64,000 nt of DNA from assembly GCA_951406725.2 (NCBI GenBank), contig OX597833.1, positions 13,392,001-13,456,000 of the forward strand. The letters run 5' to 3'. The DNA comes from Octopus vulgaris. Taxonomy: Eukaryota. This document shows positions 7,703 through 61,013 of this stretch, one piece after another. A program made the translations under genes and the position numbers. The notes under the pieces are model-generated. The model was not told the DNA's origin. It saw only the letters and a list, made by a program, of their open reading frames with translations, and did not search any database. The stretch's first letter is position 1, and each line of letters opens with the position of its first letter.

Positions 7703-7706
<4 letters not shown>

Positions 7707-7933
7707 AATTGCAGCGTGGACGGTGTTTATAAGACATTTAAGAAACACAAAAACCGTTAGATTCACTTCAGCATTTAAATTTAATTTGCCAAAATATTTT
7801 CGTCGCTTTGAGACCGCGTCCTGTTCACTGACAACATTCCGTGAATGGCTTATAAACACCTTCCACGCTGCAATTGTTTTCGCTCCAGCACACAATCTCA
7901 GATCAGGTCACTTGCCATGCAAGTACATCTCCG

Positions 7934-8003: not shown

Positions 8004-9387
8004 AGGAAGGGTGCTTGTGTGTGTCCTCACCACCGGTTGACAACCTGTGTCGGTTTGTTTACATCGCCATATGTATATATGTATGTATTTATTTTGCTTG
8101 TTTCTCTCTTTAGCATAGTGTTGACCAATTACCTTTTCCTTTCTCTTCGTCAAGTCACAAAGCTCCAGACAGAGCATAGCTGTTGCAGGATGTTGACAGC
8201 GCCGAGCAATGCCGATTTGTTTTAAGATGACAACATAAGGTTTAGCATTTAGCTTTTTCATGTGCGTTTCAAAGTAAATATCGATGGAGCCAAGACCTCC
8301 AATTACTATTGATGCAACTTCAGCCTTTCTGTTCTACGATCTGGAAGTTTTTAATCGTAGCTCCGCATACTTATATACACACATTCACATACGCACACAC
8401 TCACACATACACACATTCACATACGCACACACTCACACATACACACATTCACATACGCACACACTCACACATACACACATTCACATACGCACACACTCAA
8501 ACATACACACGTTCACATACGCACACACACATACACACATTCACATATACATACTTATATGTGTGTATGTATATGTGCGTGTATGTGTGTGTGTGTACAA
8601 GAGGGGATTCCACACAGTTTCCATCTACCAAATTCAATGACAAGGCATTGGTCAGCTCTGGGTTTTAATGGAAGACACTTGCCCAAGGTGCCGAGCAGTA
8701 GGTTTGAACTCGAAACAGCGTGGTTACAAACCGGGCATTTTAACCACACAGCCATGCCTGCTTCGTGGGCAAATAGAAAAATAATGGCTGGAGTAACTTT
8801 GATCATAGTTTATCCAGGCTGGCGTTGAGTTATGGACGACACAATGTATCAAAATCCATGATTCACCCACAATCACCTATCTACCCACCCTGATTTCATC
8901 CCATTTCTTTACCATCTTTTCCCACCCCGTCACAACGTACACCCCCTCCTCCCATCCCATCTGACAACTGCTAATGACAAAGAGATAACATGAAACCAGT
9001 GAATAGAAAACGGGGTGGAGTAACGTGTAAAGATGGAAAAGGGACAGAATTAAAGGCGGGTGGATGAGATAGATGAGACGGGTAGACGGGTGGTTCGGAG
9101 GTGCTGAGGCGGGATCGGGGGCAATTTGGTGTGTGACAACAATTCAATTAGAAGGGCAAAACAATTTTAAAGGATGTCGGTATTTACTACAGGACCGGGG
9201 TGGATGGCGAAAAGCCTACCCCCTAGTGACAGGTGACAATGTCACGTGATTAATGCAGAAGAGAAAAAAAGGCGGTGTAGCGATAGGGTTGGTAGTAATG
9301 GGGGTGATTGTGATGTAGTGGACTATGAACATATATATGTGTGTATACACACACACACACACTCACACACACATATATATATATATA

Positions 9388-9700
9388 CGGAGATGTACTT
9401 GCATAGCAAGTGATTTGTTCTGAGATCGTGTGCTGAAACGAAAACAATTGCAGCGTGGAAGGTGTTTATAAGCCATTTAAGAAACACACAAAAGCCGTTC
9501 GATTCACTTCAACGTTTAAGTTTAATTTGTCAAAATATTTTCGTCGCTAAAATCCGCGACCTGTTCACTGAAATCTGTCAGTGAACAGGTCGCGGATTTT
9601 AGCGACGAAAATATTTTGACAGATTAAACTTAAATGTTGAAGTGAATCGAACGGCTTTTGTGTGTTTCTTAAATGGCTTACAAACACTTTCCACGCTGCA
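9388..9700 (-). mobile_element. F2 HHR element, fold-back (arms 9449-9571 and 9578-9700) plus ~60-nt unique tail
   Basis: Near-perfect ~123-bp inverted arms, TA-flanked, with an HHR on each strand. Confidence 0.8.
9575..9622 (+). ncRNA. Hammerhead ribozyme variant, G3-C8 core (GUGAACA)
   Basis: CTGTCA-GTGAACA-G-GTCGC ggatttta GCGAC-GAAA-ATAT-TT-TGACAG: 6-bp stem I, 5-bp stem II, palindromic AATATT stem III. Confidence 0.75.
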
Positions 9701-9738
<38 letters not shown>

Positions 9739-10386
9739 TAAACACACACGCACGCATATATATACACACATAACAACATACATGATATATGTTTTATTTA
9801 TATAGATATATATATACATATATATTATATATATAAATGTGTGTGTATACGTATTGATATGTGTGTATATCTGTATATAAAATATATGCATGTTTGTATG
9901 TACGCATATGTATGTGTGTGTGTATCTTGTCATCACCGCTTGACAAAGGTAGTCTCCCGGAACCTAGCGGTTCGGCATAAAAGACTTATAGAATAAATAT
10001 GGCCACTGTTTAATAACTGAAGCAAGTAAAAGAAAATATAAAAGAATATATGTGTGAATGTGTGTGCATGCGTGTGTGTGCGCACGCGCGCGTGGTTGTG
10101 CGCGTGCGCATATATACATTTTGGATATACGCTTTTCTTATACACATCTCATTGTTGATGCTGTTCCCTATATAACCACAAACGTAATTCTTTCTCAATT
10201 AAATTGCAGTTCCTTTTTGAGGCTCCGATGAAGCCGTAAGATGTTATGCAGGCACTCAACCATGAGCCCGCTGCCTCTGGTAGCAGAAACGTCTGCAAGC
10301 CAATGAAATACATAACATTAATAATTTATTCCTTTGCATTCTCCTTTTCTTATTGCTGCTCTATATTCAGTCCACACGCACACATG

Positions 10387-10430
<44 letters not shown>

Positions 10431-10910
10431 GTGTGTGTGTATATGCGTGAGCTTGAGTGTGCGTATGTGTGCGCGTTTGTATGTGTGCGTGCGTGTGTAT
10501 ATGCGCGTGTGTGTATGTGTGCGTGTGTGTGTGTGTGTGCGTAGTGTCTGGGTAGTGGAGGTGTGGGGTGTGGCGTTCTCTGGTGCCATACCTGATGTCG
10601 TGGAATGTAGCCATTGTTCATGTCTCACCTGCGCGTCTTTCCTGTGTGACATCGACTTTCATCGCACCACCGATTCTCACCTTTACGGTCGGCATAAATA
10701 TTCTACACTATTGTGTCGGCTTTGAATAGCCTCATCTACGGACACACACACACACACACACACACATACATTCATCTTTCTCTATATATAAGTATACACA
10801 CACGCATACACACATATACATATAAACATATACGTCTTTCTCTAAATACACACACACATGTGTGTGTGTATATATATATATACATATATACACATAAATA
10901 TATGTATATG

Positions 10911-10963
<53 letters not shown>

Positions 10964-11067
10964 ATATATATATATGTATGTATATATATATATATATGTA
11001 TGTATATATATATATATATGTATGTATATATATATATGTGTATATATATATATATGTGTATATATAT

Positions 11068-12082
11068 AGCAATAATAATTCTCTAAAAGGGATATAGACA
11101 GTAACTGCTCGATAACATAAGGGACTAAAGCCATCTGAATATGGCTAGGGACAGGGCAGGGTGGTGGGGGTGTTACTGTTGCATTTAGCCCCAGGCGAAC
11201 ATCGACGTCACCAGAAAGGCTCGACACCGTCACGGTGCCCTTAACCTGCAAAGGGAGGTAATTCCCCGATGAAGCGGAAACCACACACGGACCATGGTTT
11301 CAAGGTGTATTGCCTATCATCGGCGTGTGGTAGGCCTCCGCTTCCTCGACGAATTCTCACTCTGCAGGATTTTCTTATATAGATTTTCAAGCAAAATACA
11401 TTTGCTGATTTCGAAAATCTGTTCGAAAGCAATAATAATTCTCTAAAAGGGATATAGACAGTAACTGCTCGATAACATAAGGGACTAAAGCCATCTGAAT
11501 ATGGCTAGGGACAGGGCAGGGTGGTGGGGGTGTTACTGTTGCATTTAGCCCCAGGCGAACATCGACGTCACCAGAAAGGCTCGACACCTTTGCAGGTTAA
11601 GGGCACCGTGACGGTGTCGAGCCTTTCTGGTGACGTCGATGTTCGCCTGGGGCTAAATGCAACAGTAACACCCCCACCACCCTGCCCTGTCCCTAGCCAT
11701 ATTCAGATGGCTTTAGTCCCTTATGTTATCGAGCAGTTACTGTCTATATCCCTTTTAGAGAATTATTATTGCTTTCGAACAGATTTTCGAAATCAGCAAA
11801 TGTATTTTGCTTGAAAATCTATATAAGAAAATCCTGCAGAGTGAGAATTCGTCGAGGAAGCGGAGGCCTACCACACGCCGATGATAGGCAATACACCTTG
11901 AAACCATGGTCCGTGTGTGGTTTCCGCTTCATCGGGGAATTACCTCCTTTGCAGGTTAAGGGCACCGTGACGGTGTCGAGCCTTCTGGTGACGTCGATGT
12001 TCGCCTGGGGCTAAATGCAACAGTAACACCCCCACCACCCTGCCCTGTCCCTAGCCATATTCAGATGGCTTTAGTCCCTTAT
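11068..12082. mobile_element. 360-bp HHR-bearing repeat (F3): ~1.45 direct units then ~1.38 inverted units, TA-flanked (retrozyme- or Penelope pLTR-like)
   Basis: AGCAATAATAATTCTC at 11068 and 11428 gives a 360-bp period. Inversion point is ~11587. TTTGCAGGTTAAGGG occurs at 11589 and 11948. Copies are near-identical. Confidence 0.85.
11857..11930 (+). ncRNA. Type I hammerhead ribozyme, core CCGAUGA, GUC site (mirror copy 11271-11344 on minus strand)
   Basis: GAAGCGGA..ACACG-CCGATGA-T-AGG caataca CCT-T-GAAA-CCATGG-TC-CGTGT..TCCGCTTC, with extended stem I and palindromic ACCATGGT stem III. Confidence 0.8.
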
Positions 12083-12123
12083 ATATATATATATATATAT
12101 ATATATCGTATTGCCCACATATG

Positions 12124-12175
<52 letters not shown>

Positions 12176-12323
12176 ATAAGTATATATATATATACATGTG
12201 TGTGTGTGTACAAAGAGAGAGAGAGAGAGAGAGAGAGAAATAACAGCCATATTGAAGTGGCGATAAACATTACTTCTCATAGACTTTCTAACTACTTTAT
12301 ATGTGAGTGTGCGTCTGTGCGAA

Positions 12324-12590
12324 GGTGCAGGGCTCAGTGGTTAGAGCATGGGGCTCACAATCACGAGGGAGGGAGTTCGATTCCCGGACCGGGCTGTGTG
12401 TTGTGCTCTTGAGCAAGACACTTTAGTTCACATTGCTCCAGTTGATTCAACTGTAGAAATGAGTTCCGATGTCACCAGTGCCAAGCTGTATCAGCCTTTG
12501 CCTCTCCCTTGGATAACATCGGTGGCGTGAGGAGGGGAGACTGGTATGGAGGGGTGACTGCTGGTCTTCCTTAAACAACCTTGCCCGGAC
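12324..12590 (+). mobile_element. tRNA-derived SINE (CORE-like), older copy
   Basis: GGCTCAGTGGTTAGAGC..GAGTTCGATTCCC..GTGCTCTTGAGCAAGACACTT. Confidence 0.7.
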
Positions 12591-13350
12591 ACGAAATTTT
12601 TTTCCTACGAGAGTTCCGGACCCCAGTTATGAACTCATTTCCGTACAGTCGATCAGAGCTCAACTATCAAAACTGATTTATGAGGGCATAACAAGTGATG
12701 GGCGATAAGATAAGGTCCCTTGGGTAAGGAATGACCATGCTTCTTTTCTCTTTTAAGAATGCTTGTTGTTCTTGTTCGTGTTTCAACCCTGGCTGCCTCT
12801 GCGTAGTTATTTGTGTTGTTGTTTACTTTGTAAAGCAGTAAGGGGAGAGAGTTGCTAGCACATCACCTTCCACCCACATTTTTCCCCTCCACATCTTTAC
12901 TATGTGGGGCCCTAACAAAATCCGATAATAGGTATAGATGCAAATCTATCTAATTACTTGTCTCCTTCTAAAACCAGACACAATTTTGCGATCGGTCGAC
13001 TTACAACACCGTCCTTCATCTTGAGTTTACTTGGCAGAGTGTGTTTTACCAAGAGATTGGTTGTTTTTAACACATTCATGAATGTTATGTTGGGCTTTGC
13101 GTCTAAGCATAATCTGAGAGCTAAACAGCACCTTTCCTTTCACACTTTTCAAGCAATCCTTCAATGGTCTGCCAGCAACGATGCGGTTTCCGCCACCATC
13201 AACCATCTTTCTCCTGGATGTTTCAGTTGGTTGCGCACCAATTGTCTTCATACTGACTAGAGATTTTCGTCCATAGTTCGTATCAATGAATGAATTCAAT
13301 GTGTATTTATAAAACCTTTAAGCAGTTTCCGTACTTTCATATTCGTCAAA

Positions 13351-13651
13351 GTGGAGGTGCATGGCCCAGTGGTTAGAACAGCGGATTCGCTGTCGAGGGA
13401 TCGCGGGTTCGAATCTTAGCCCGGGCGATGTGTGTGTTTATGAGCGGAACACCTAAGCTCCATGCGGCTCCGGCAGAAAGTAATGGCGAAATTCTGCTGA
13501 CTCTTTCGCCACAACTTTTTCTCACTCTTTCCTCCTGCATTTTGCAGCTCACCTGCGACAGACCGGTGTCCCGTCCAGGTGGGGAACCTATACGCCAAGG
13601 AAACCGGGAAACCGGCCCTAATGAGACAGGCATGGCTTGAGAAGGAACAAA
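13351..13651 (+). mobile_element. tRNA-derived SINE family D with 13-bp TSD
   Basis: A and B boxes TGGCCCAGTGG and GGTTCGAATC. TSD CATATTCGTCAAA at 13338-13350 and 13652-13664. Second copy at 52869-53160. Confidence 0.9.
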
Positions 13652-14059
13652 CATATTCGTCAAAAACATTATCTTTGATTGCTATAGTAATTCAAGCTTA
13701 CCGCTAACCAGCGTGTGTGTTCAGTATCGATGGTATTGCCATTTGAATGAGAGCACAATACAAGGTTCGCATGGCAATCGGAGGTCGCCATTTTGAATGG
13801 CAACATTTGCTAACCTGACTGCATAGGCAAGGTGAGCTCTGATTGGCTGTATACAAATATATTCACTTCTGGGGTGCGGAACTCTTGTCAGAAAAAAAAT
13901 TTCGCTTCCCGGACATGTACTTTGGAGCGGCATTCTCTAGGTGCAATCCCGTCCTGATACCTACATACATACATACATTCATACATACATACATACATAC
14001 ATACATACATACATACATACATACATACATACGTACGTACGTATGTACATAACATAAAA

Positions 14060-15221: not shown

Positions 15222-16610
15222 CATTTCTGTTCTAGGCACAAGGCCTGAAATTTGGGGGGAGGGGGACAGTCGATTAGATCTAACCAGTACGCAATTGGTA
15301 CTTAATTTATCGATCATGAAAGGATGAAAGGCAAAGTCGACCTCGGCGGAATTTGAGCTCAGAGCATAAAAGATTGAAGAAATACCGCCAAGCATTTCAC
15401 CCGTGTGGTAGCGTTTCTGCCAGCTCGCCGCCTTTTATACGTATTGTATATTCTTTTCTACTCAGGGCACAAAGCCAGGCTCGAAATGTTTAAGGAGGGG
15501 ACCAGTTGATTAGATCGACCCTAGTACGCAACTGGTACTTAATTAATCGACCCTGAAAGGATGAAAGGCAAAGTCCACCTCGGCGGAATTTGAACTCAGA
15601 ACGTAAAGACAAAAGAAATACCTATTTCTTTACTACCCACAAGGGGCTAAACACAGAGGGGACAAACAAGGACAGCCAAACGGATCAAGTCGATTACATC
15701 GACCCCAGTGCGTAACTGGTACTTATTTAATCGACCCCGAAAGGATGACAGGCAAAGTCGAATTTGAACTCAGAACGTAACGGCAGACGAAATACCTATT
15801 TCTATTTCTTTACTACCCACAAGGGACTAAACACAGAGGAGACAAACAAGAACAGACAGACAGATTACGTCGATCCCAGGGCGTAACTGGTACTTAATTT
15901 ATCAATCCCGAAAGGATGAAAGGCAAAGTCGACCTCAGCGGAATTTGAACTCAGAACGTAAAGACAGACGAAATACCTATTTCTTTACTACCCACAAGGG
16001 GCTAAACACAGAGAGGACAAACAAGGACAGACAAAGGGATTAAGTCGATTACGTCGATCCCAGTGCGTAACTGGTACTTTTTTAATCGACCCCGAAAGGA
16101 TGAAAGGCAAAGTCGACCTCGGCGGAATTAGAGCTCAGAACGTAGCGGCAGACGAAATACCACAAAGCATTTCGCCCGGCGTGCTAACGTTTATTTCTTT
16201 TTACTGCCCACAAGGGGCTACACACAGAGGGGACAAACAAGGACAGACAAAGGGATTAAGTCGATTACATCGACTCCAGTGCGTAACTGGTACTTAATTT
16301 ATCGACCCCGAAAGGATGAAAGGCAAAGTCGACCTCGGAGGAATTTGAACTCAGAACGTAACGGCAGACGAAATACTCATTTCTTTACTGCCCACAAGAG
16401 GCTAAACACAAAGAGGACAAACAATGACAGACAAAGGGATTAAGTCGATTACATCGACCCCAGTGCGTAACTGGTACTTTTTTAATCGACCCCGAAAGGA
16501 TGAAAGGCAAAGTCGACCTCGGCGGAATTAGAACTCGGAAAGTAGCGGCAGACGAAATACCGCTAAGCATTTCGCCCGGCGTGCTAACGATTCTGCCAAG
16601 CTCGCCGCCT
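15222..16610 (-). mobile_element. SINE family B heptameric head-to-tail array (~180-bp units)
   Basis: Seven copies of the CTGGTACTTAATTTATCGACCCCGAAAGGATGAAAGGCAAAGTCGACCTCGGCGGAATTTGAACTCAG consensus. Imperfect 18-bp flanking duplication at 15204-15221 and 16612-16629. The central segment resembles the Meta-SINE domain (from memory). Confidence 0.9.
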
Positions 16611-21411: not shown

Positions 21412-21607
21412 AGTTGACATTTACAGAAGACCAAAAGACGAAGACGGATGTATAAACAACAAGCAGGTGTATTAGTTTGATGCTCGGGGAGATGAGAAAG
21501 TCTTTTACGTTTCGAGCCTACGCTCTTCAACTGAAAGGAACACGAAGAAATAAACAGACAGAGAGAAACGAAAAAAACCCGTGGATTTACCGGTCAATTA
21601 TGGCGAA
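21412..21607 (-). mobile_element. F1 HHR element (HHR 21501-21538, core decayed to CAGUUGA)
   Basis: Reverse complement of 48301-48500, TA-flanked. Confidence 0.7.
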
Positions 21608-23161: not shown

Positions 23162-23640
23162 TATTGTTATATTTCGGAATGGTCATTTTGCCAGTTTGGC
23201 CAATAAAAACACACGCACTATATATTTGGTGTTATTTTGCTTCAGTGTTATTTATTTTTTATATTAATCTTAATCTTATTTCGGCCAAAGTTCTTTCGTC
23301 ACACTCCTGTGTCCGCATCAGTGGTCCTTTATTTTTCATTTGTGTCTCACCTTACTAACCATCAGCCGGCTGACGGTTAGTAAGGTGAGACACAAATAAG
23401 GAAGAAGAAAACAAAGGACCACTGATGCGGTCACAGGAGTGTGACGAAAGAACTCTGGCCGAAATAAGATTAAGATTAATGTAAAAAAATAAATAACACT
23501 GAAGCAAAATAACACCAAATATATAGTGCGTGTGTTTTTATTGGCCAAACTGGCAAAATGATCATTCCGAAATATAACAATATCTGTTTCAACACACGAC
23601 TTCACATAAAAAAATCTTGCACAGCAAATATATAAACGTA
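23162..23640 (+). mobile_element. F4 HHR element: spacer-less fold-back centred at 23367/23368 plus ~55-nt tail, in (ATT)n
   Basis: Centre TCAGCC|GGCTGA, arms to 23162 and 23582. HHR at 23416-23460(+): CCA-CTGATGC-G-GTCAC aggagt GTGAC-GAAA-GAAC-TC-TGG, mirrored at 23283-23327. Confidence 0.75.
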
Positions 23641-24627: not shown

Positions 24628-25165
24628 TAGAACATTATTGGTGAATTGAAGAAATGGAGCTGAACGCAGATTGAACAGAAATCGTTTTATTTCATTCTAC
24701 ACGTGTTTCGAAAGGCACAAATTACCAAAATCCGATGGAATAATGGGACCATATTGTGTCTTTCTCTTCAGGAAGAAAATAGGAAATCCGTTGGAAAAAC
24801 AAAAACAGAACAGAGGCGGAGCAAATCCGCCTCTGTTCTGTTTTTGTTTTTCCAACGGATTTCCTATTTTCTTCCTGAAGAGAAAGACACAATATGGTCC
24901 CATTATTCCATCGGATTTTGGTAATTTGTGCCTTTCGAAACACGTGTAGAATGAAATAAAACGATTTCTGTTCAATCTGCGTTCAGCTCCATTTCTTCAA
25001 TTCACCAATAATGTTCTAATTTCAATTATCCGCACCAACGCACGGTTGCAACACCATATGGTTGTACCTCCAACCGTGCTGTTTTACTGCTGTGATTTTT
25101 GCTACTAAGGTATCGGTTAAACTTTTGATTAATCTACTACAAGATTATTCATCTTTCTATTTCAC

Positions 25166-25168
<3 letters not shown>
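24628..25168 (+). mobile_element. F5 HHR element: 193-bp perfect inverted arms (24628-24820 and 24826-25018) plus 150-nt tail
   Basis: Mirror-image ORFs on both strands, 5-bp spacer GCAAA, TA-flanked. Homolog at 60392-61013. Confidence 0.85.
24865..24958 (+). ncRNA. Type I hammerhead ribozyme, core CUGAAGA, GUA site (mirror 24688-24781 minus)
   Basis: TTCTTC-CTGAAGA-GAAAGACACAA..TTGTGCCTTTC-GAAA-CACGTG-TA-GAATGAA. Long stem II and palindromic ACACGTGT stem III. Confidence 0.85.
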
Positions 25169-26064: not shown

Positions 26065-26775
26065 TACATCTGGATGAGCTGAGACATTCTTTAGTTCGCC
26101 AGTGATTCAAAGCTTGGTGTAGGGAATGGGTTCACCGGATGCTTCTATTCTTATTTCTTTACTGTCCACAAGGGGCTACACACAGAGGGGACAAACAAGG
26201 ACAGACAAACGGATTAAGTCGATTACATCGACCCCAGTGCGTAACTGGTAATTAATTTTTCAACTCCGAAAGGATGAAAGGCAAAGACGACCTCGGCGGA
26301 ATTTGAACTCAGAACGTAGCGACAGACGAAATACTGCTAAGCATTTTGTCCGACGTGCCAGCTCGCCGGATGGTTCTATTCTATCCACATCAAGGCACTT
26401 CGTCCAGGCGATCCAGCGGAGGTACATTCGGGCCCCAGCTTACATCAACAGCCCACAAACCAGCTCCCTAAATGAAAGCCGGTCAGAGGTTTTCTCTGCA
26501 GATTCACTCGAAAAATAAACGGCCCTCTCCTTTGCCGTCCTTGTAAGTTCAGTAGGTTAAGGGCATTTCAGAGTTATACAAAATCTCTGTGGCCCAATTC
26601 CATGTCTTTATAACGGGCTTTCCGAACTTTGTCCAAGCACTACTTCACTAGAATTTGGTATTTCATGCGTTTTCTCTCATTGGCTTTTCTAACACGCTCT
26701 TCTCAGGAGTTCTGCGTTAAAGCGCAATCATTTTTGTTGTTTCTGAGCTGATGGCCATCTTTGAATGTGACGCAC
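26065..26775 (-). pseudogene. Degraded 3' end of a HERO/R2-like RLE LINE, interrupted by a SINE
   Basis: Minus-strand translation fragments EERVRKANERKRMKYQILV and MELGHRDFV resemble the ELTVPWEE..A.ERK..KY..L..EVG.RGF motif. Confidence 0.5.
26152..26365 (-). mobile_element. SINE family B monomer with 17-bp TSD
   Basis: CCGGATG(C/G)TTCTATTCT at 26135-26151 and 26366-26382. Confidence 0.9.
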
Positions 26776-26876
26776 TAGAAAATTCATCCATCCATCCATC
26801 CATCCATCCATCCATACATACATACATACATACATACATAAAACACACACACACATATATATATAATACATGTATG

Positions 26877-26910
<34 letters not shown>

Positions 26911-27174
26911 TGTATGTATGTATGTATATTAGAAGGTTTGGAGATGAGGTACAGGTATTTTATATTAGAAGAAATGAGGTAATCAGAAATCCGGATGGTT
27001 TTATATTTACAGATATTTATTTGTATATCACATGTTTTTATACATCATATAACATATATCATATATCATATATTAACGCTTTCGCCCATTCTATGTATGT
27101 ATATATTTATATAATACATGTATGTATGTATGTATGTATGTATGTATGTATGTATGTATGTGGACCATATATAT

Positions 27175-27271
<97 letters not shown>

Positions 27272-27324
27272 CATGCAAAACCGTTTATCCAAGCATGTCC
27301 TTTTTCTCTCTCCATTGTTTTCTC

Positions 27325-27665
27325 TCGCTACGTTCTGAGTTCAAATTCCGCCGAGGTCGACTTTGCCTTTCATCCTTTCGGAGTCGATAAAATAAGTACC
27401 AGTTGCGCACTGGGGTGGATCTAATTGACTGGCCTCCTCCTACAATAAAAAAAAAAAAAAAAATTGGGCCTTGTACCTAGAGCAGAAAAATAAAGTATTT
27501 GGTCTGACTACATGTTCGGTGTTCAAATTCCAGCGAGGTCGACTTTGTCCGTCATCTTTTCGGGGTCGATAAATTAAGTACCAGTAAAACACTGAAGCCG
27601 ATCTAATCGGTTAGACCCCTCCCCACAAAATTTCAGGCCTTGAGCCGTTAGTAGAAAGGAATATT
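27325..27665 (+). mobile_element. SINE family B, two headless older units
   Basis: GTTCAAATTCC..GAGGTCGACTTTG..TCATC.TTTCGG.GTCGATAAA.TAAGTACCAG occurs twice. Confidence 0.75.
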
Positions 27666-29817: not shown

Positions 29818-30005
29818 AGAGTTTACGAAAACAACAAAAGACGAAGACAGGTGGTGTGCAAAACAAACAGATGTATTAGTATAACGCTCACGAATAGAAA
29901 AAGTCTATTACATTTCGAGCCTACGCTCTTCTACAGAAAGGGACACAGAAAAAACAAGGAGAGAAACAAGGAGAGAAATAAAATATGTGTAGTGGCTAAC
30001 GATCT

Positions 30006-30009: not shown

Positions 30010-30054
<45 letters not shown>

Positions 30055-30221
30055 GGTTTGTTGCCAACTTGATGTGGCACTCCCAGGAAAGGGAAGAATG
30101 CTTTTGCTATTTAGCCCGCCCCATGAAACATCGTTTCCAGTTGGCCATGTGGCACAAGCGTTCTATGTCCTTAAGTCTTCAAACAGGGGAGATAAGCACC
30201 TCCACCTAGCAAAGCCAGCAC

Positions 30222-30262
30222 CCAACGACTAGTTTCAGAGTCATTGCTCTTCGTCAGTCTGG
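30222..30262 (-). ncRNA. Hammerhead ribozyme, core CUGACGA, GUC site, in TA-flanked element 30050-30380
   Basis: CCAGA-CTGACGA-A-GAG caatga CTC-T-GAAA-CTAG-TC-GTTGG, with one stem I mismatch. Confidence 0.7.
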
Positions 30263-30617
30263 AATAGCTTGGCTTGCAAGCTGTCGATGCTGATTCACCT
30301 TTGAAAACTTATAGAATTTTAAGTGAAATAAACTCACTAATTTTCAAAATATATAGCGAATGATTTATGTATTTATGACTTATATATATATATATAGCGA
30401 ATGTTTAGCCCCGAAAGGCTCGGAAACGGTGCGTCCACGGGAAAAACGAATTTGATTTTCGAAATCAGCGTCCCAAAGAGAATGTTGTTTGTAAATGATA
30501 ATATTAAAAAAATGTATATTTGCCAAAGAGAAATAACTGAACTTATAGACCTAAAAATCTCACACTCTCTGTCACCATTCTAGCTCCCTCTGTATATTTG
30601 CCATATTTCTCTGTCTG

Positions 30618-33189: not shown

Positions 33190-35571
33190 GCAATCTCCCT
33201 CTTATGTACGCAGCTTGAATCTAACCGCTTGTGCGTACTCAGCCGATAGGTGTGCACATAGCAACAGCAGTAGCAAATCAGCTGCGCGAATGCATGAGTG
33301 CAGCCAATCACAGCAAAGCTCACATATGCCACCGTTTTAGATCATATTTGTCATCTTTCCTGTCAGTTTTTTCCATGATGTCAAGCAAAGGAAAGGGGAA
33401 GCGTTTGAAAGAATCCCAGAGATTGTATCATCCGAGTAACTTCATCACAGAAGTGAGTGAAGTCATCCGGAAGATTTGGGAGAACCGGGAAGCGATCCAA
33501 AAACGTTGTACTTTCATGTCTCAGGAGACCAAAATGCAAACATTTCGAGCATCAATGGGTAGGTTTTCGGAGCTTGAAGACATGCTGCACCTGTGGATTG
33601 ATTGCCTTCGTCATGTAAACATGCCTGTCTCACCGTCATTGGCCATTGTAAAAGCAAACCAGATGGCTGTGGAATTATAGATATTGGAAGATGACTTTAA
33701 AGCATTGGGGTAGTGGTTAACCAGATTCAGAATACGTCACGGGTTACAGAAAGTTTTGCTCCATGGCAAAGGAGTAGAAGTGAACAAAGATCCAGAGTTA
33801 TTGGTTGCATTGAACGATTTACATGGTGTAGTTGAACAGTATGATACTGAAAATGTTTATAACATGGATGAAATAGAGTTATTTTTTCGGTAGCTGCTCA
33901 AATATACCCTACTTATGCAATACGAAGATGTCAGCGCCATCTGAGGAAAGAAGAACGTTAAAGAACGGATGTCACTCATTGTTTGTGCGAATGTCACAGG
34001 AACGCACTAAGTTCTTTGCGCTTTAATCGGAAAATACAAAGAGCCGGCCTGTATGAAAATAGGGAATGACCTCTGAAGTACTTTAATCGGAGCAAAGCGT
34101 GGATGGATATCAAAACGTGTTATAAATGGTTCAGCGAAGTGAAGATGAGAACGGGACGCCGTGTTCTCTTGTTCATGGACAATGCTTCGGGCCATTCTGA
34201 AGCTTTTGAACGGGATAACATCATGGTTGTATTTTCCCCACGTAATTGCACCGGCTGGAATTAACCATGTAATATGGATATCATTGCAGCACTAAAAGAT
34301 AGGTGCAAATATTTGTATATCAAGGACGTTCTTGAGTTTTCGAGCTTGATGAGGCCTCAAGAATCCACCAGAAAGAGCAAGCAAAAAGCTACGCAGAGGG
34401 GCGACGGTTGTAGCTTATGGTAATCCTGCACATTCACTCGATGCTGCTCACCGTGTGAAGCGTACATGGAATGCAGTACCAGCTGCATCAATCAAGGACG
34501 CATTCAAAAAGGATGAATTATTAAAGAAAACGAATGGATGTCCGAAATTTTGCTTAGCTTCGACTCATTCAATATTGCAATGAACAAGGACGAATCAGAG
34601 GAACAAATGCATGTCAGTGATGAAAACCATGAGGAGTGTGTACAGGCAATTTTGGAGGACAAATAGGTGTTGATGACAGGGTCGCGAACTGAAGAAATAA
34701 CTGAGGACGCCGATGACGATGGTGACCAGAGCGACACTATTGGGTCAATCGATTATGTCAGTTTCAAAGTTTCAACGGCTTCGACAACCTGGACAACACG
34801 GTGCTCAACCTTGAAGGTCGGTTGAGCAGTAGCTGCTCAAATATACCCTACTTATGCAATACGAAGATGTCAGCGCCACCTGAGGAAAGAATAACGTTAA
34901 AGAACGGATGTCACTCATTGTTTGTGTGAATGCCACCGGAATGCACAAAGTTCCTTGCGCATTAATCGGAAAATACAAAGAGCCGGCCTGTATGGAAACC
35001 GGGAATGGCCTCTGAAGTACTTTAATCAGAGCAAAGCATGAATGGATATCAAAACGTGTTATAAATGGCTCAACGAAGTGAAGATGAGAACGGGACGCCG
35101 TGTTCTCTTATCGATGGACAATGCTTCAGGCCATTTTGAAGCTTTTGAACGGGATAACATCAAGGTTGTAGTTTCCCCCAGATAATTGCACCAGCTGGAA
35201 TTAACCATGTAATATGGATATCATTGCAGCACTAAAAGAAAGGTGCCAATATTTGTTTATCAGATGTACAAGCTGCAGCAGATGATGGTTACAATGACCT
35301 GAAAAAGGTACTTCGATTGCTTTCAGAGGAAGCTAAGACGAGTGACATTGGAAGCGCAGCGCAAAAGAAGAAAAATCCTGAGTCATGATTTTGCATGATA
35401 TGTTTAAACAATAAACTCCACAAGTTATCAGGTATCTTGGCTCGTTTATTACTTATTTAGATGTTCATTAATGTTGCCTGTGGAATAAATCGTTGACAAA
35501 CTTGGATCTGGGCCACTTGAAAATTTTGTGCGTATTTATCTGAGATGCGTACTTAACCAAGAGGCTACCGT
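33188..35571 (+). mobile_element. Tigger/pogo-family DNA transposon, degenerate
   Basis: Weak terminal inverted similarity (TTATGTACGCA near 33202 versus TGCGTACTTAA near 35546) around a transposase pseudogene. Confidence 0.6.
33376..35400 (+). pseudogene. Tigger-type (CENP-B HTH + DDE_1) transposase pseudogene
   Basis: GRFSELEDMLHLWID..PVSP..IVKA, WLTRFRIRHGL..LHG, VYNMDE.ELFF, KERMSL.VCAN.TG, LLFMDNASGH. Many stops and frameshifts. 33890-34322 is duplicated at 34829-35262. Confidence 0.88.
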
Positions 35572-38416: not shown

Positions 38417-38580
38417 TTGACTCTGTCCGTTATTTACACTGCGTTCCTTTTTGTTTGTTTTTGTTATATATATAATAGAAATATCAAAATTTTGATATTT
38501 CTATTATTGAAAACAAGTGGATGTATTCCACCGAAAATAGGTAAATAGAACCTTCGAACAGAGACGATCAGTGGCGACAC

Positions 38581-38654
38581 CTGCTGAGTCGACTACGCTA
38601 CATTGACAAGGGGCAAATACCCTGAAACGCGTCTGTAGCTGTCTGACTAGCAGT
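38581..38654 (+). ncRNA. Hammerhead ribozyme variant, U3-A8 core (UUGACAA), GUC site
   Basis: GCTACA-TTGACAA-GGGG caaata CCCT-GAAA-CGCG-TC-TGTAGC (38597-38639). Stem I extends via CTGCT.AGTC/GACTAGCAG. Outer inverted repeat AGAACCTTCGAACA at 38547-38560 and 38675-38688. Confidence 0.8.
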
Positions 38655-38808
38655 GTGAAGCGGCTGACCTCCCTTGTTCGAAGGTTCTAATGGACACAGT
38701 TTGTGTGTCATATAGCTATCTTAAGGCGATGGCCTAATGGAGCTAATCAGCGACAGCTTTTAGTCTCATATCTATAAGATTGCCATATTAATATGGCGAT
38801 AACAATTA

Positions 38809-38848
<40 letters not shown>

Positions 38849-43776: not shown

Positions 43777-43810
43777 ATATATGCATATATGCTCAGATGC
43801 AGCACGGAAT

Positions 43811-43861
43811 TTTGTCAATGAATAGGTCGCGGTCTCAAAGCGACGAAAATATTTTGACAAA
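43811..43861 (+). ncRNA. Hammerhead ribozyme variant, A3-U8 core (AUGAAUA), F2 family (element ~43790-43943)
   Basis: TTTGTCA-ATGAATA-G-GTCGC ggtctcaaa GCGAC-GAAA-ATAT-TT-TGACAAA: 7-bp stem I and 5-bp stem II. Confidence 0.72.
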
Positions 43862-43942
43862 TTAAACTTAAACGTTGAAGTGAATCTAACAGATTTTGTG
43901 AGTTTCTTAAATGGCTTACAAACACCTTCCACGATGCGATTG

Positions 43943-45070: not shown

Positions 45071-45378
45071 CCTTATCAAAAATATTTTTAAAAGTTAAGT
45101 GTAATAAAAAAAAGTTCATAATTGTTTCTAACTGGTCTCAACAGAGTCTACATGGTGGTGTTTTGTGTGGGGAAGCATAATGGCTGTCTTGTGCGCTGAC
45201 TAGATTCGTTGGCTGTAATTTTTCACGATTACAGCCAACGAATCTAGTCAGCGCACAAGACAGCCATTATGCTCCCCCCACCACAAAACACCACCACGTG
45301 GACTCTGTTGAGACCAGTAAGAAACAATTTTGAACTTTTTTTTATTACACTTAACTTTTTAAAATATTTTTAATAAGG
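45071..45378. repeat. ~150-bp-arm fold-back palindrome (MITE-like), no HHR seen
   Basis: Arms 45071-45219 and 45228-45378 with an 8-bp spacer. Confidence 0.9.
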
Positions 45379-45851: not shown

Positions 45852-46265
45852 GGAGAGCTTGCAGAAACGTTAGCACGCCGGGCGAAATGCGTAGCCGTAT
45901 TTCGTCTGCTGTTACGTTCTGAGTTCAAATTCCGCCGAGGTCGACTTTGCCTTTCATCCTTACGGGGTCGATAAATTAAGTACCAATTGCGCACTGGGGT
46001 CGATATAATCGACTTAATCCGTCTGTCTGTCCTTGTTTGTCCCCACTGTGTTTAGATCCTTGAGGGTAATAAAGAAATAGGTATTTTGTCTGCCGCTACG
46101 TTCTGAGTTCAAATTCCGCCGAGGTCGACTTTGCCTTTCATCCTTTCGGGGTCGATAAATTAAGTACCAGTTACGCACTGGGGTTGATATAATCGACTTC
46201 ATCCATTTGTCTGTTCTTGTTTGTCCTTTCTGTGTTTAGCCCCTTGTGAGTAGTAAAGAAATAGT
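45852..46265 (+). mobile_element. SINE family B dimer with 7-bp TSD, nested in an older minus-strand SINE
   Basis: One head and two bodies, junction AAAGAAATAG|GTATTTTGTCTG. TAAGTGT at 45845-45851 and 46266-46272. Confidence 0.88.
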
Positions 46266-47867: not shown

Positions 47868-48034
47868 GGTAGGGGTTATATGCCAACAGAATGTGGCAGT
47901 CCTATAAAGGACGAGGTTACTGTTGTTTTAGCCCCAGGAAAACATCTTTTCCAGCTGGCTATCGACAGACAGCTTGTGTCCGTATAGCATTTGCAAGGGA
48001 AGTCATCGCTCCTATCTCTAACCTTACGTGATAG

Positions 48035-48074
48035 TCATAGACCTAGGTTTCTGAATTTTCCGTCATCAGTGTGA
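48035..48074 (-). ncRNA. Hammerhead ribozyme, core CUGAUGA, GUC site, in TA-flanked element 47868-48215
   Basis: TCACA-CTGATGA-C-GGA aaa TTC-A-GAAA-CCTAGG-TC-TATGA, palindromic ACCTAGGT stem III. Confidence 0.7.
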
Positions 48075-48230
48075 GACAACCACAAGTTAGTGATGAAAGC
48101 TCTGTCCACTTGCAAATACTATATATTTTTAAAGCGACACATTCTGCCACATTTTGTTGGCATATAAAAATTATTATCCGGTAGTGTTACTGTATTTCTC
48201 TCGCTCAGAGATTTAAACACACACACATAC

Positions 48231-60391: not shown

Positions 60392-60395
<4 letters not shown>

Positions 60396-61013
60396 GAAAT
60401 AGAAAGATGAATAATCTTGTTGCAGATTAATCATAAGTTTAACCGATACCTTGGTAGCAAAAATCACAGCAGAAGACAGCACGGTTGGAGGTACAACCAT
60501 ATGGTGTTGCAACCGTGCGTTGGTGCGGATAATTGAATTTTAATATTATTAGTGAATTGAAGAAAAGGAGTTGAACGAAGATTGAACAGAAATCGTTTTA
60601 TTGCATTCTACACGTGTTTCGAAAGGCACAATTTACCAAATTCCGATTGAATAATGAGACCATATTGTGTCTTTCTCTTCAGGAAGAAATAGGAAATCCG
60701 TTGGAAAAAACAAAAACAGAACAGAGGCGGAGCAAAACAAATCGAACGAGGCTCCTAAGAGCCCATGGCCAAACTGTTTATCAATGTATGTTGAAAACGG
60801 GTGGTGGGTGCGTTGAAGATTGTAACGGGTCAGCAGCGGTCATTCCGGTGGGTGAGGGCACGGGGTGCGTAGATGTTCTTTGTGACCGAGACTAAAGTTC
60901 TGACTATTTAAAGAATATTAGGTGTATTGTGCCTTTCGAAACACGTGTAGAATGCAATAAAACGATTTCTGTTCAATCTTCGTTCAACTCCATTTCTTCA
61001 ATTCACTAATAAT
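60392..61013 (-). mobile_element. F5 HHR element, second copy, with inverted segment 60926-61013
   Basis: Reverse complement of 24826-25168. HHR on minus strand at 60606-60686. 60543-60631 is inverted at 60926-61013. TA-flanked. Confidence 0.85.

Follow-up and report, generated by a model that had tools for sequence, protein, structure and literature searches.

The insertion at positions 11068 to 12082 of the 64,000-nucleotide stretch of DNA analysed here (the window) is, with a probability that we put at roughly 0.8, a non-coding Penelope-like element (PLE) insertion, whose unit consists of a pLTR and a tail with no ORF between copies. The insertion is young, and the locus is an ordinary but unusually clean PLE-type insertion of a 360-nt unit that carries a hammerhead ribozyme (HHR). 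The parts of the insertion, in window coordinates, are as follows.

11068..12082, no strand assigned: whole insertion, a head-to-head PLE-type tandem/inverted structure of a 360-bp non-coding unit
10865..11067, no strand assigned: left flank and target site, a (TA)n/(TATG)n microsatellite
11068..11116, minus: 49-nt 'tail' (distal RT start site), confined to the left outer end
11117..11476, minus: full 360-nt unit of the left arm (tail, body, HHR, 3' region), up to the proximal start site
11284..11329, minus: left-arm type I HHR, with the cut predicted at 11290/11289
11477..11588, minus: upstream 5'-truncated copy of the left arm, 112 nt, pLTR-like, without HHR
11587..11612, no strand assigned: inversion junction, where the arms share 2 nt of microhomology (11587-11588); the 24-nt spacer is part of the right arm
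11587..11724, plus: upstream 5'-truncated copy of the right arm, 138 nt, without HHR
11725..12082, plus: full unit of the right arm, 358 nt with two 1-nt deletions, stopping at the proximal start site without the tail
11872..11917, plus: right-arm type I HHR, with the cut predicted at 11911/11912
12053..12070, plus: conserved 3' hairpin, 12 nt ahead of the proximal 3' end (mirrored at 11129-11146 on the minus strand)
12083..12106, no strand assigned: right flank, a (TA)n microsatellite

A preliminary description of this DNA, made from the letters alone, had reported an exact 360-bp period with about 1.45 units on one strand followed by about 1.38 units inverted, near-identical copies, outer ends that stop at different phases of the unit, and (TA)n on both sides. 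Measurement bore out each of these observations. The left arm (11068-11588) keeps a period of exactly 360 bp across 521 nt (1.45 units) without a mismatch, and the right arm (11587-12082, 496 bp) is its inverted copy. This copy spans 1.38 units (498 unit positions) and lacks a single nucleotide in each of two homopolymer runs, near 11946 and near 11983. In the mirrored part of the arms all 470 of the 470 aligned bases are identical, and there are two 1-nt gaps. The outer ends lie at unit phases 1 and 50 and the inner ends at phases 161 and 187; the arms overlap by 2 nt (11587-11588), with a spacer of 24 nt, and the right arm continues past the junction through phases 162-187, which are absent from the left arm. 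Read in the sense of the HHR, the arms are divergent and head-to-head, and both 3' ends adjoin the (TA)n tracts at 10865..11067 and 12083..12106. There are thus two 3' end positions, 49 nt apart, with the extension at the left outer end alone. The flanks mirror each other in simple repeats only, and no target-site duplication was discernible at the (TA)n on either side.

Because this geometry matches the published anatomy of PLEs, we assign the locus to PLE-type insertions. The PLE signature is described as a partial tandem, an inverted 5'-truncated copy, a tail of 30-40 bp at one end and a microsatellite or (TA)n target (PMC8557442, PMC8969392), and head-to-head inversions with palindromic junctions have been read as the result of self-priming (PMC3846280). 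At the locus studied here, partial tandems of 112+360 nt (left) and 138+358 nt (right) are present, the second copy is inverted, head-to-head and 5'-truncated, and a tail stands at one end, although at 49 nt it is longer than the published 30-40 bp. The target is AT-rich microsatellite as well, an agreement that carries less weight in a window of which about 32% is masked as simple repeat. The preliminary description missed that the one-sided tail, the (TA)n and the tandem and inverted arms together make up the ordinary PLE signature. Nor are the offset outer ends evidence for a circular RNA, since two internal RT start sites explain both of them; in anole Poseidon the tail is the stretch between two such sites (PMC11167929). 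Pairs of PLE HHRs on opposite strands, 100-700 bp apart, were noted as early as 2014 (PMC4209133).

Closest in structure are the EN+ PLEs with HHR-bearing pLTRs (the Penelope/Poseidon, Neptune, Nematis and Hydra clades), for which the partial tandem, the inverted 5'-truncated head-to-head copy, the one-sided tail, the AT or (TA)n target and a type I HHR with palindromic stem III are all described, as here. The present insertion differs from them in having no RT/EN ORF, in that both arms are partial tandems of a 360-nt unit, and in its 49-nt tail. Naiads also use (TA)n targets but are without canonical HHRs. Non-autonomous PLE derivatives of the Chlamys/MRC1 type are short and form pLTRs and head-to-tail multicopy insertions; they are, however, algal, and most Chlamys elements are described as lacking HHRs, whereas the focal unit carries one and sits in a microsatellite-rich, animal-like genome.

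An autonomous PLE would have an ORF for a telomerase-like RT and GIY-YIG protein. Of the 197 reading frames in the window (at least 55 aa, simple repeats excluded), none had a Pfam match to an RT or GIY-YIG family, and no autonomous PLE partner was seen in the 64 kb. Reading frames within the insertion had no Pfam match, and in the circularised unit (360 bp, GC 46.9%) the longest ATG ORFs are 35 aa in sense and 50 aa in antisense, in agreement with the earlier remark that there is no meaningful ORF. A protein search with a 105-aa frame, among proteins of similar lengths, returned 6 candidates, none at E<=0.01. Among nucleotide searches, an exact 28-nt pattern had no match in bacterial and archaeal genomes, a search of plasmids gave no match, and a phage search gave one 30-nt match (E 8e-3) that we take as chance.

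As had been claimed, there is one HHR in each orientation, and a shuffle-controlled descriptor recovers both. The left-arm HHR is on the minus strand and the right-arm HHR on the plus strand. Three further details of the earlier reading, namely the U4C core, the GUC site and the long extended stem I, are confirmed. A 6-bp stem I sits inside the extended stem, whose fold has a z of -4.79 (0 of 200 shuffles equally stable); in stem II a U.U mismatch precedes the 3 bp, and stem III is an 8-nt palindrome. The type I descriptor found 3 matches in the 64 kb, 2 of them in this insertion. When made strict (stem I of at least 6 bp, palindromic stem III), it found both insertion HHRs only and nothing in 30 Markov-shuffled windows; in loose form it gave a single match in 3 of 30 shuffled windows. 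Rfam at the gathering threshold returned no hammerhead match in the 64-kb window, and at E<=10 hammerheads were absent among 92 matches in 9000-14000 and 2 in 11780-12000, all of which were microsatellite-driven or chance matches. A possible plus-strand HHR in the left arm was considered and rejected, the descriptor having found none there and the fold being weak (z -1.88). The U.U mismatch at the base of stem II is shared with axolotl HHR_Amex2 (PMC7229834). The palindromic stem III suggests that this HHR may work as a dimer; such stems are tied to dimeric activity in PLE ribozymes (PMC4209133).

Three diverged relatives of the unit lie in the window.

30050..30380, minus: relative r30, with a canonical core, a 4-bp stem II and a palindromic stem III, between TA runs
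38470..38811, plus: relative r38, with a U3-A8 covariant core and perfect stems I and II, ending at (TA)n
47868..48218, no strand assigned: relative r48, with a long arm on the minus strand (47868-48135) and a short inverted 3' copy with tail on the plus strand (about 48140-48218)

Relative r30 was found by nhmmer with the unit (E 1.3e-4), r48 (47868-48226) has a pairwise alignment score of 65 against a maximum of 39 in 300 shuffles, and r38 (38507-38802), which was outside the training set, was found by a three-sequence profile (E 4.9e-15). Global identity among the focal unit, r30 and r48 is 51-54%. Stem pairs were read from regex-anchored cores; MAFFT misaligned the core of r48. All four family loci have a palindromic stem III, each with a different sequence, a stem II of 3-4 pairs with differing bases, a distance of 171-178 nt from the cut to the 3' end, and a 3' hairpin 12-13 nt ahead of that end. 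This conserved hairpin is a candidate signal for RT binding or initiation. The 3' ends of all three relatives adjoin (TA)n. Stem I has mismatches in two of them, with 5 of 6 pairs formed in r30 and 4 of 6 in r48. Both of these relatives keep core position U4, so U4C is confined to the focal lineage.

The layout of r48 is the same as that of the focal insertion, with head-to-head arms and a one-sided tail. Its short inverted 3' copy had a score that none of 2000 shuffles reached, and its tail (48166-48218) shows homology to that of the focal insertion, with a score matched or exceeded in 4 of 2000 shuffles. Tail-body adjacency, which would have proved that a closed unit was inherited, failed to reach significance in r30 (359 of 2000 shuffles) and in r38 (645 of 1000). 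A hairpin predicted across the tail-body junction of r30 was not the preferred fold of the focal sequence and was set aside. At its 5' end, beside a TA run, r38 has a perfect 16-bp snap-back palindrome (38470-38520).

A perfect palindrome between microsatellites is also what an assembly or chimeric-read artefact might look like; the two homopolymer deletions both fall in one arm, and PLE structures are known to trouble assemblies. We nevertheless consider an artefact very improbable, since the relatives keep the HHR with covarying stems, the hairpin, the end spacing and, in r48, the tail. The 3' end position recurs in 3 of 3 relatives, the flanks are not mirrored beyond simple repeats, and the right arm holds phases that the left arm lacks.

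For the PLE-type insertion, the steps can be proposed as follows. A PLE RT/GIY-YIG protein, acting in trans, would nick the (TA)n; reverse transcription would be primed at internal start sites on a unit-bearing RNA; the RT would read through the HHR site, copying more than one unit; and the inverted arm would come from snap-back of the cDNA or from priming off the second target strand. Sequences of the pLTR are reported to suffice for mobilisation in trans (PMC3846280), and in anole Poseidon both target strands are nicked and extended, with uncleaved RNA as the dominant template (PMC11167929). Of the proposal that this locus was reverse transcribed with a fold-back strand switch and makes circular RNA, one part stands: a reverse-transcribed, HHR-bearing, non-coding unit of retrozyme size, with the fold-back as one of two viable routes. 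The part that made it a circRNA-producing locus does not.

Evidence on the origin of the inversion comes from palindrome centres, which we measured in 5 of the 15 near-inverted matches in the window. The spacer is 24 nt here and 6, 14, 5 and 8 nt elsewhere, and a recognisable HHR was present in just 1 of the four other palindromes. Short spacers favour snap-back, or two cDNAs halting at the same place, while a one-sided tail and two-strand priming favour priming off both target strands. A plain snap-back in which the left arm templated the right was rejected, the left arm being without phases 162-187; copying from right to left, or a later central deletion, is possible. Deletion at a microhomology in the centre of a longer palindrome would be one such later mechanism. 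Inversions formed by L1 twin-priming also have divergent arms joined at microhomology, like the focal arms. Those arms, however, are non-overlapping parts of one RNA and come with poly(A), whereas the focal arms both repeat one sequence and have no poly(A).

A second, unrelated HHR family, with a long stem II, a palindromic stem III and a GUA site, occupies 24630-25167 and 60393-61011. The two loci are 94% identical, and at both of them divergent arms adjoin (TA)n, one arm extending about 150 nt beyond the end of the other, with nearly equal end positions. The arms at 24.6 kb are 100% identical across 191 nt and have a spacer of 5 nt. With ends conserved in the relatives of the focal unit and the same layout in the second HHR family, the divergent two-end layout is generic in this genome. 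Long palindromes also occur at 9449-9700, 23171-23573 and 45071-45378, with arms 92-95% identical in self-alignment and spacers of 6-14 nt. A scan for HHR cores found none in the 23-kb and 45-kb palindromes, and none in the relatives of 9449-9700 at 7704-7933 and 43803-43942; these palindromes are possibly ends of HHR-less (Naiad-like) PLEs, or MITEs.

Which RNA served as the template is a separate question from the PLE assignment. To a tandem mini-element RNA like those of non-LTR retrozymes, either an uncleaved or partly cleaved multimer or a circle, we give about an even chance, which makes it the likeliest candidate. Metazoan non-LTR retrozymes (Cervera and de la Pena 2020, PMC7229834; Li et al. 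2026) are described as having, as here, a short non-coding and well-folded unit, a GC content below 50%, a type I HHR and a likely derivation from PLEs. With its 360 bp and 46.9% GC the focal unit falls within the range of such elements (about 150-450 bp, GC below 50%, non-coding), and it has a type I HHR by the shuffle-controlled descriptor and by covariation in 3 relatives, the Rfam models giving no match. It differs from them in lacking a tandem HHR pair and in having an inverted arm and the U4C core. No near-identical second copy of the unit lies within the 64 kb, so that the window gives no evidence of an active multi-locus mini-element family.

A more specific version of the model in the preliminary description takes as template a 360-nt circular RNA that came from a master tandem array at another locus and was traversed more than once. 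Size and GC content fit (mussel units are 350-390 bp; PMC7229834), both arms run intact across the HHR site, and copying of a circle for more than one unit was proposed for PLEs in 2014 (PMC4209133). The fold of the circular monomer has a z of -5.1, with 0 of 60 shuffles as stable. However, linear permutations reach -116 to -123 kcal/mol against -116 kcal/mol for the circle and so fold as well or better, which means that the structure needs no closure. The HHR-competent fold of the monomer lies 7.4 kcal/mol above the minimum, with a stem II pairing probability of about 0.08, and U4C lowers activity in vitro considerably, although viroid infectivity is still possible with it (PMC3088659). Only 1 of 9 Xenopus dimers was cleaved in vitro (10.64898/2026.07.22.740005). 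Moreover, neither inner end reaches the next HHR cut; they miss it by 35-61 nt, which would suit a linear cleaved RNA. We therefore regard the circle as an unlikely template. The same inner ends, in stopping 35-61 nt from the HHR site upstream of them, give a weak hint of a linear RNA cut at that site, although the two ends are not independent.

A somewhat better case, though still on the unlikely side, can be made for a template that was no mini-element RNA at all. An autonomous PLE transcript would have a fixed 5' end, where transcription begins in the upstream pLTR, and the 360-nt period would measure how far that end lies from the distal RT start. The PLE mechanism stays as it is, with the template step alone exchanged: the RT would start within the 5' pLTR region, run off the 5' end and re-initiate at the site it had used before, building a tandem of pLTR and tail de novo. 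Read round the unit, 138 nt separate the left outer end from the HHR cut downstream of it, and the relatives begin 154 nt (r30), about 148 nt (r38, minus the 16-nt snap-back) and 96 nt (r48) upstream of theirs. The start positions of 2 of the 3 relatives, within about 16 nt of the focal period junction, hint at a fixed RNA 5' end, although these are three sequences of 51-54% identity, picked post hoc and with no formal test. In D. virilis the start of the transcript lies inside the upstream pLTR (PMC2377424), and in anole Poseidon the RT starts internally, just past the junction of pLTR and ORF (PMC11167929). An ATG in the 3' hairpin heads a frame of 22 codons that is open through the tail, which may be compared with the ORF start in pLTR and tail described elsewhere (PMC3846280); in r48 this frame is closed, and it may be chance. 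Run-off would also require exact repetition, or copying from arm to arm, to place an identical junction in both arms, and the autonomous partner that it calls for was not seen in the window.

Whichever template was used, the locus now acts as a product of retrozyme or PLE mobilisation. That it yields the circular RNA itself is scarcely credible to us, even though the HHR looks intact and the copies are near-identical. An active non-LTR retrozyme is reported to need two consecutive HHR units (bioRxiv 10.64898/2026.07.22.740005). At this locus no strand has two or more head-to-tail units each with a complete HHR; with one HHR per strand, no 360-nt monomer can be released from cut to cut. Read-through, whichever strand it copies, makes the antisense arm before the HHR, which then pairs with it; the RNA is predicted to fold back on itself over about 470 bp (about -990 kcal/mol), leaving no part of the HHR unpaired. 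The claim that the locus produces circRNA thus fails on two counts, the single HHR per strand and its burial in a perfect duplex. The copy, with a lone dimer-type HHR per strand that is weakened by U4C and predicted to be sequestered in dsRNA, is a dead end for circles. Any transcripts from it would more probably enter small-RNA or editing pathways.

The window holds a variety of other repeats, and its microsatellite load would be in keeping with a cephalopod genome. A relaxed scan, run without shuffle control, gave HHR-like cores with a palindromic stem III at 2276 (plus), 10225 (plus), 21530 (minus), 39150 (minus) and 48372 (plus); those at 21530 and 48372 belong to one repeat family, with another copy near 29822-29949. 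At 30394-30480, next to TA, lies a short fragment in which two motifs of the focal unit recur in mixed orientation, along with an exact match to it of 16 nt. The sole Pfam match above the curated cut-off among the 197 frames is a fragment of a DDE_1 (pogo/Tigger-type) transposase at 34070-34261 on the plus strand (E 1.8e-6); a weak MIF match at 64-291, also on the plus strand (E 0.0011), lies under the cut-off and is possibly a host exon. Tandem and inverted copies of an interspersed repeat of 184-216 bp, SINE-like by appearance, occur at 15760-16560, 26217-27609 and 45897-46264, and a weak tRNA-like match at 12331-12385 may head another SINE.

How the tandems and inversions of PLEs and the units of retrozymes form is unsettled in the literature (PMC8557442, PMC11167929, PMC2377424, 10.64898/2026.07.22.740005). 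One reading of this locus, which we think improbable, is that it is a snapshot of the birth of a non-LTR retrozyme, in which run-off and re-initiation write an ORF-less tandem of pLTR and tail with neither a circle nor a deletion. We found no statement of such a route in the parts of the PLE and retrozyme literature examined. If true, one further round would give a two-HHR array capable of making circles, and internal initiation (PMC11167929) would be joined to the pLTR origin of retrozymes (10.64898/2026.07.22.740005). In the near-identical arms of this locus both 3' start sites, the junction of the period and the point of inversion are resolved to a single base, so that a genome-wide survey of the family could discriminate between circular, multimeric and run-off/re-initiation templates.
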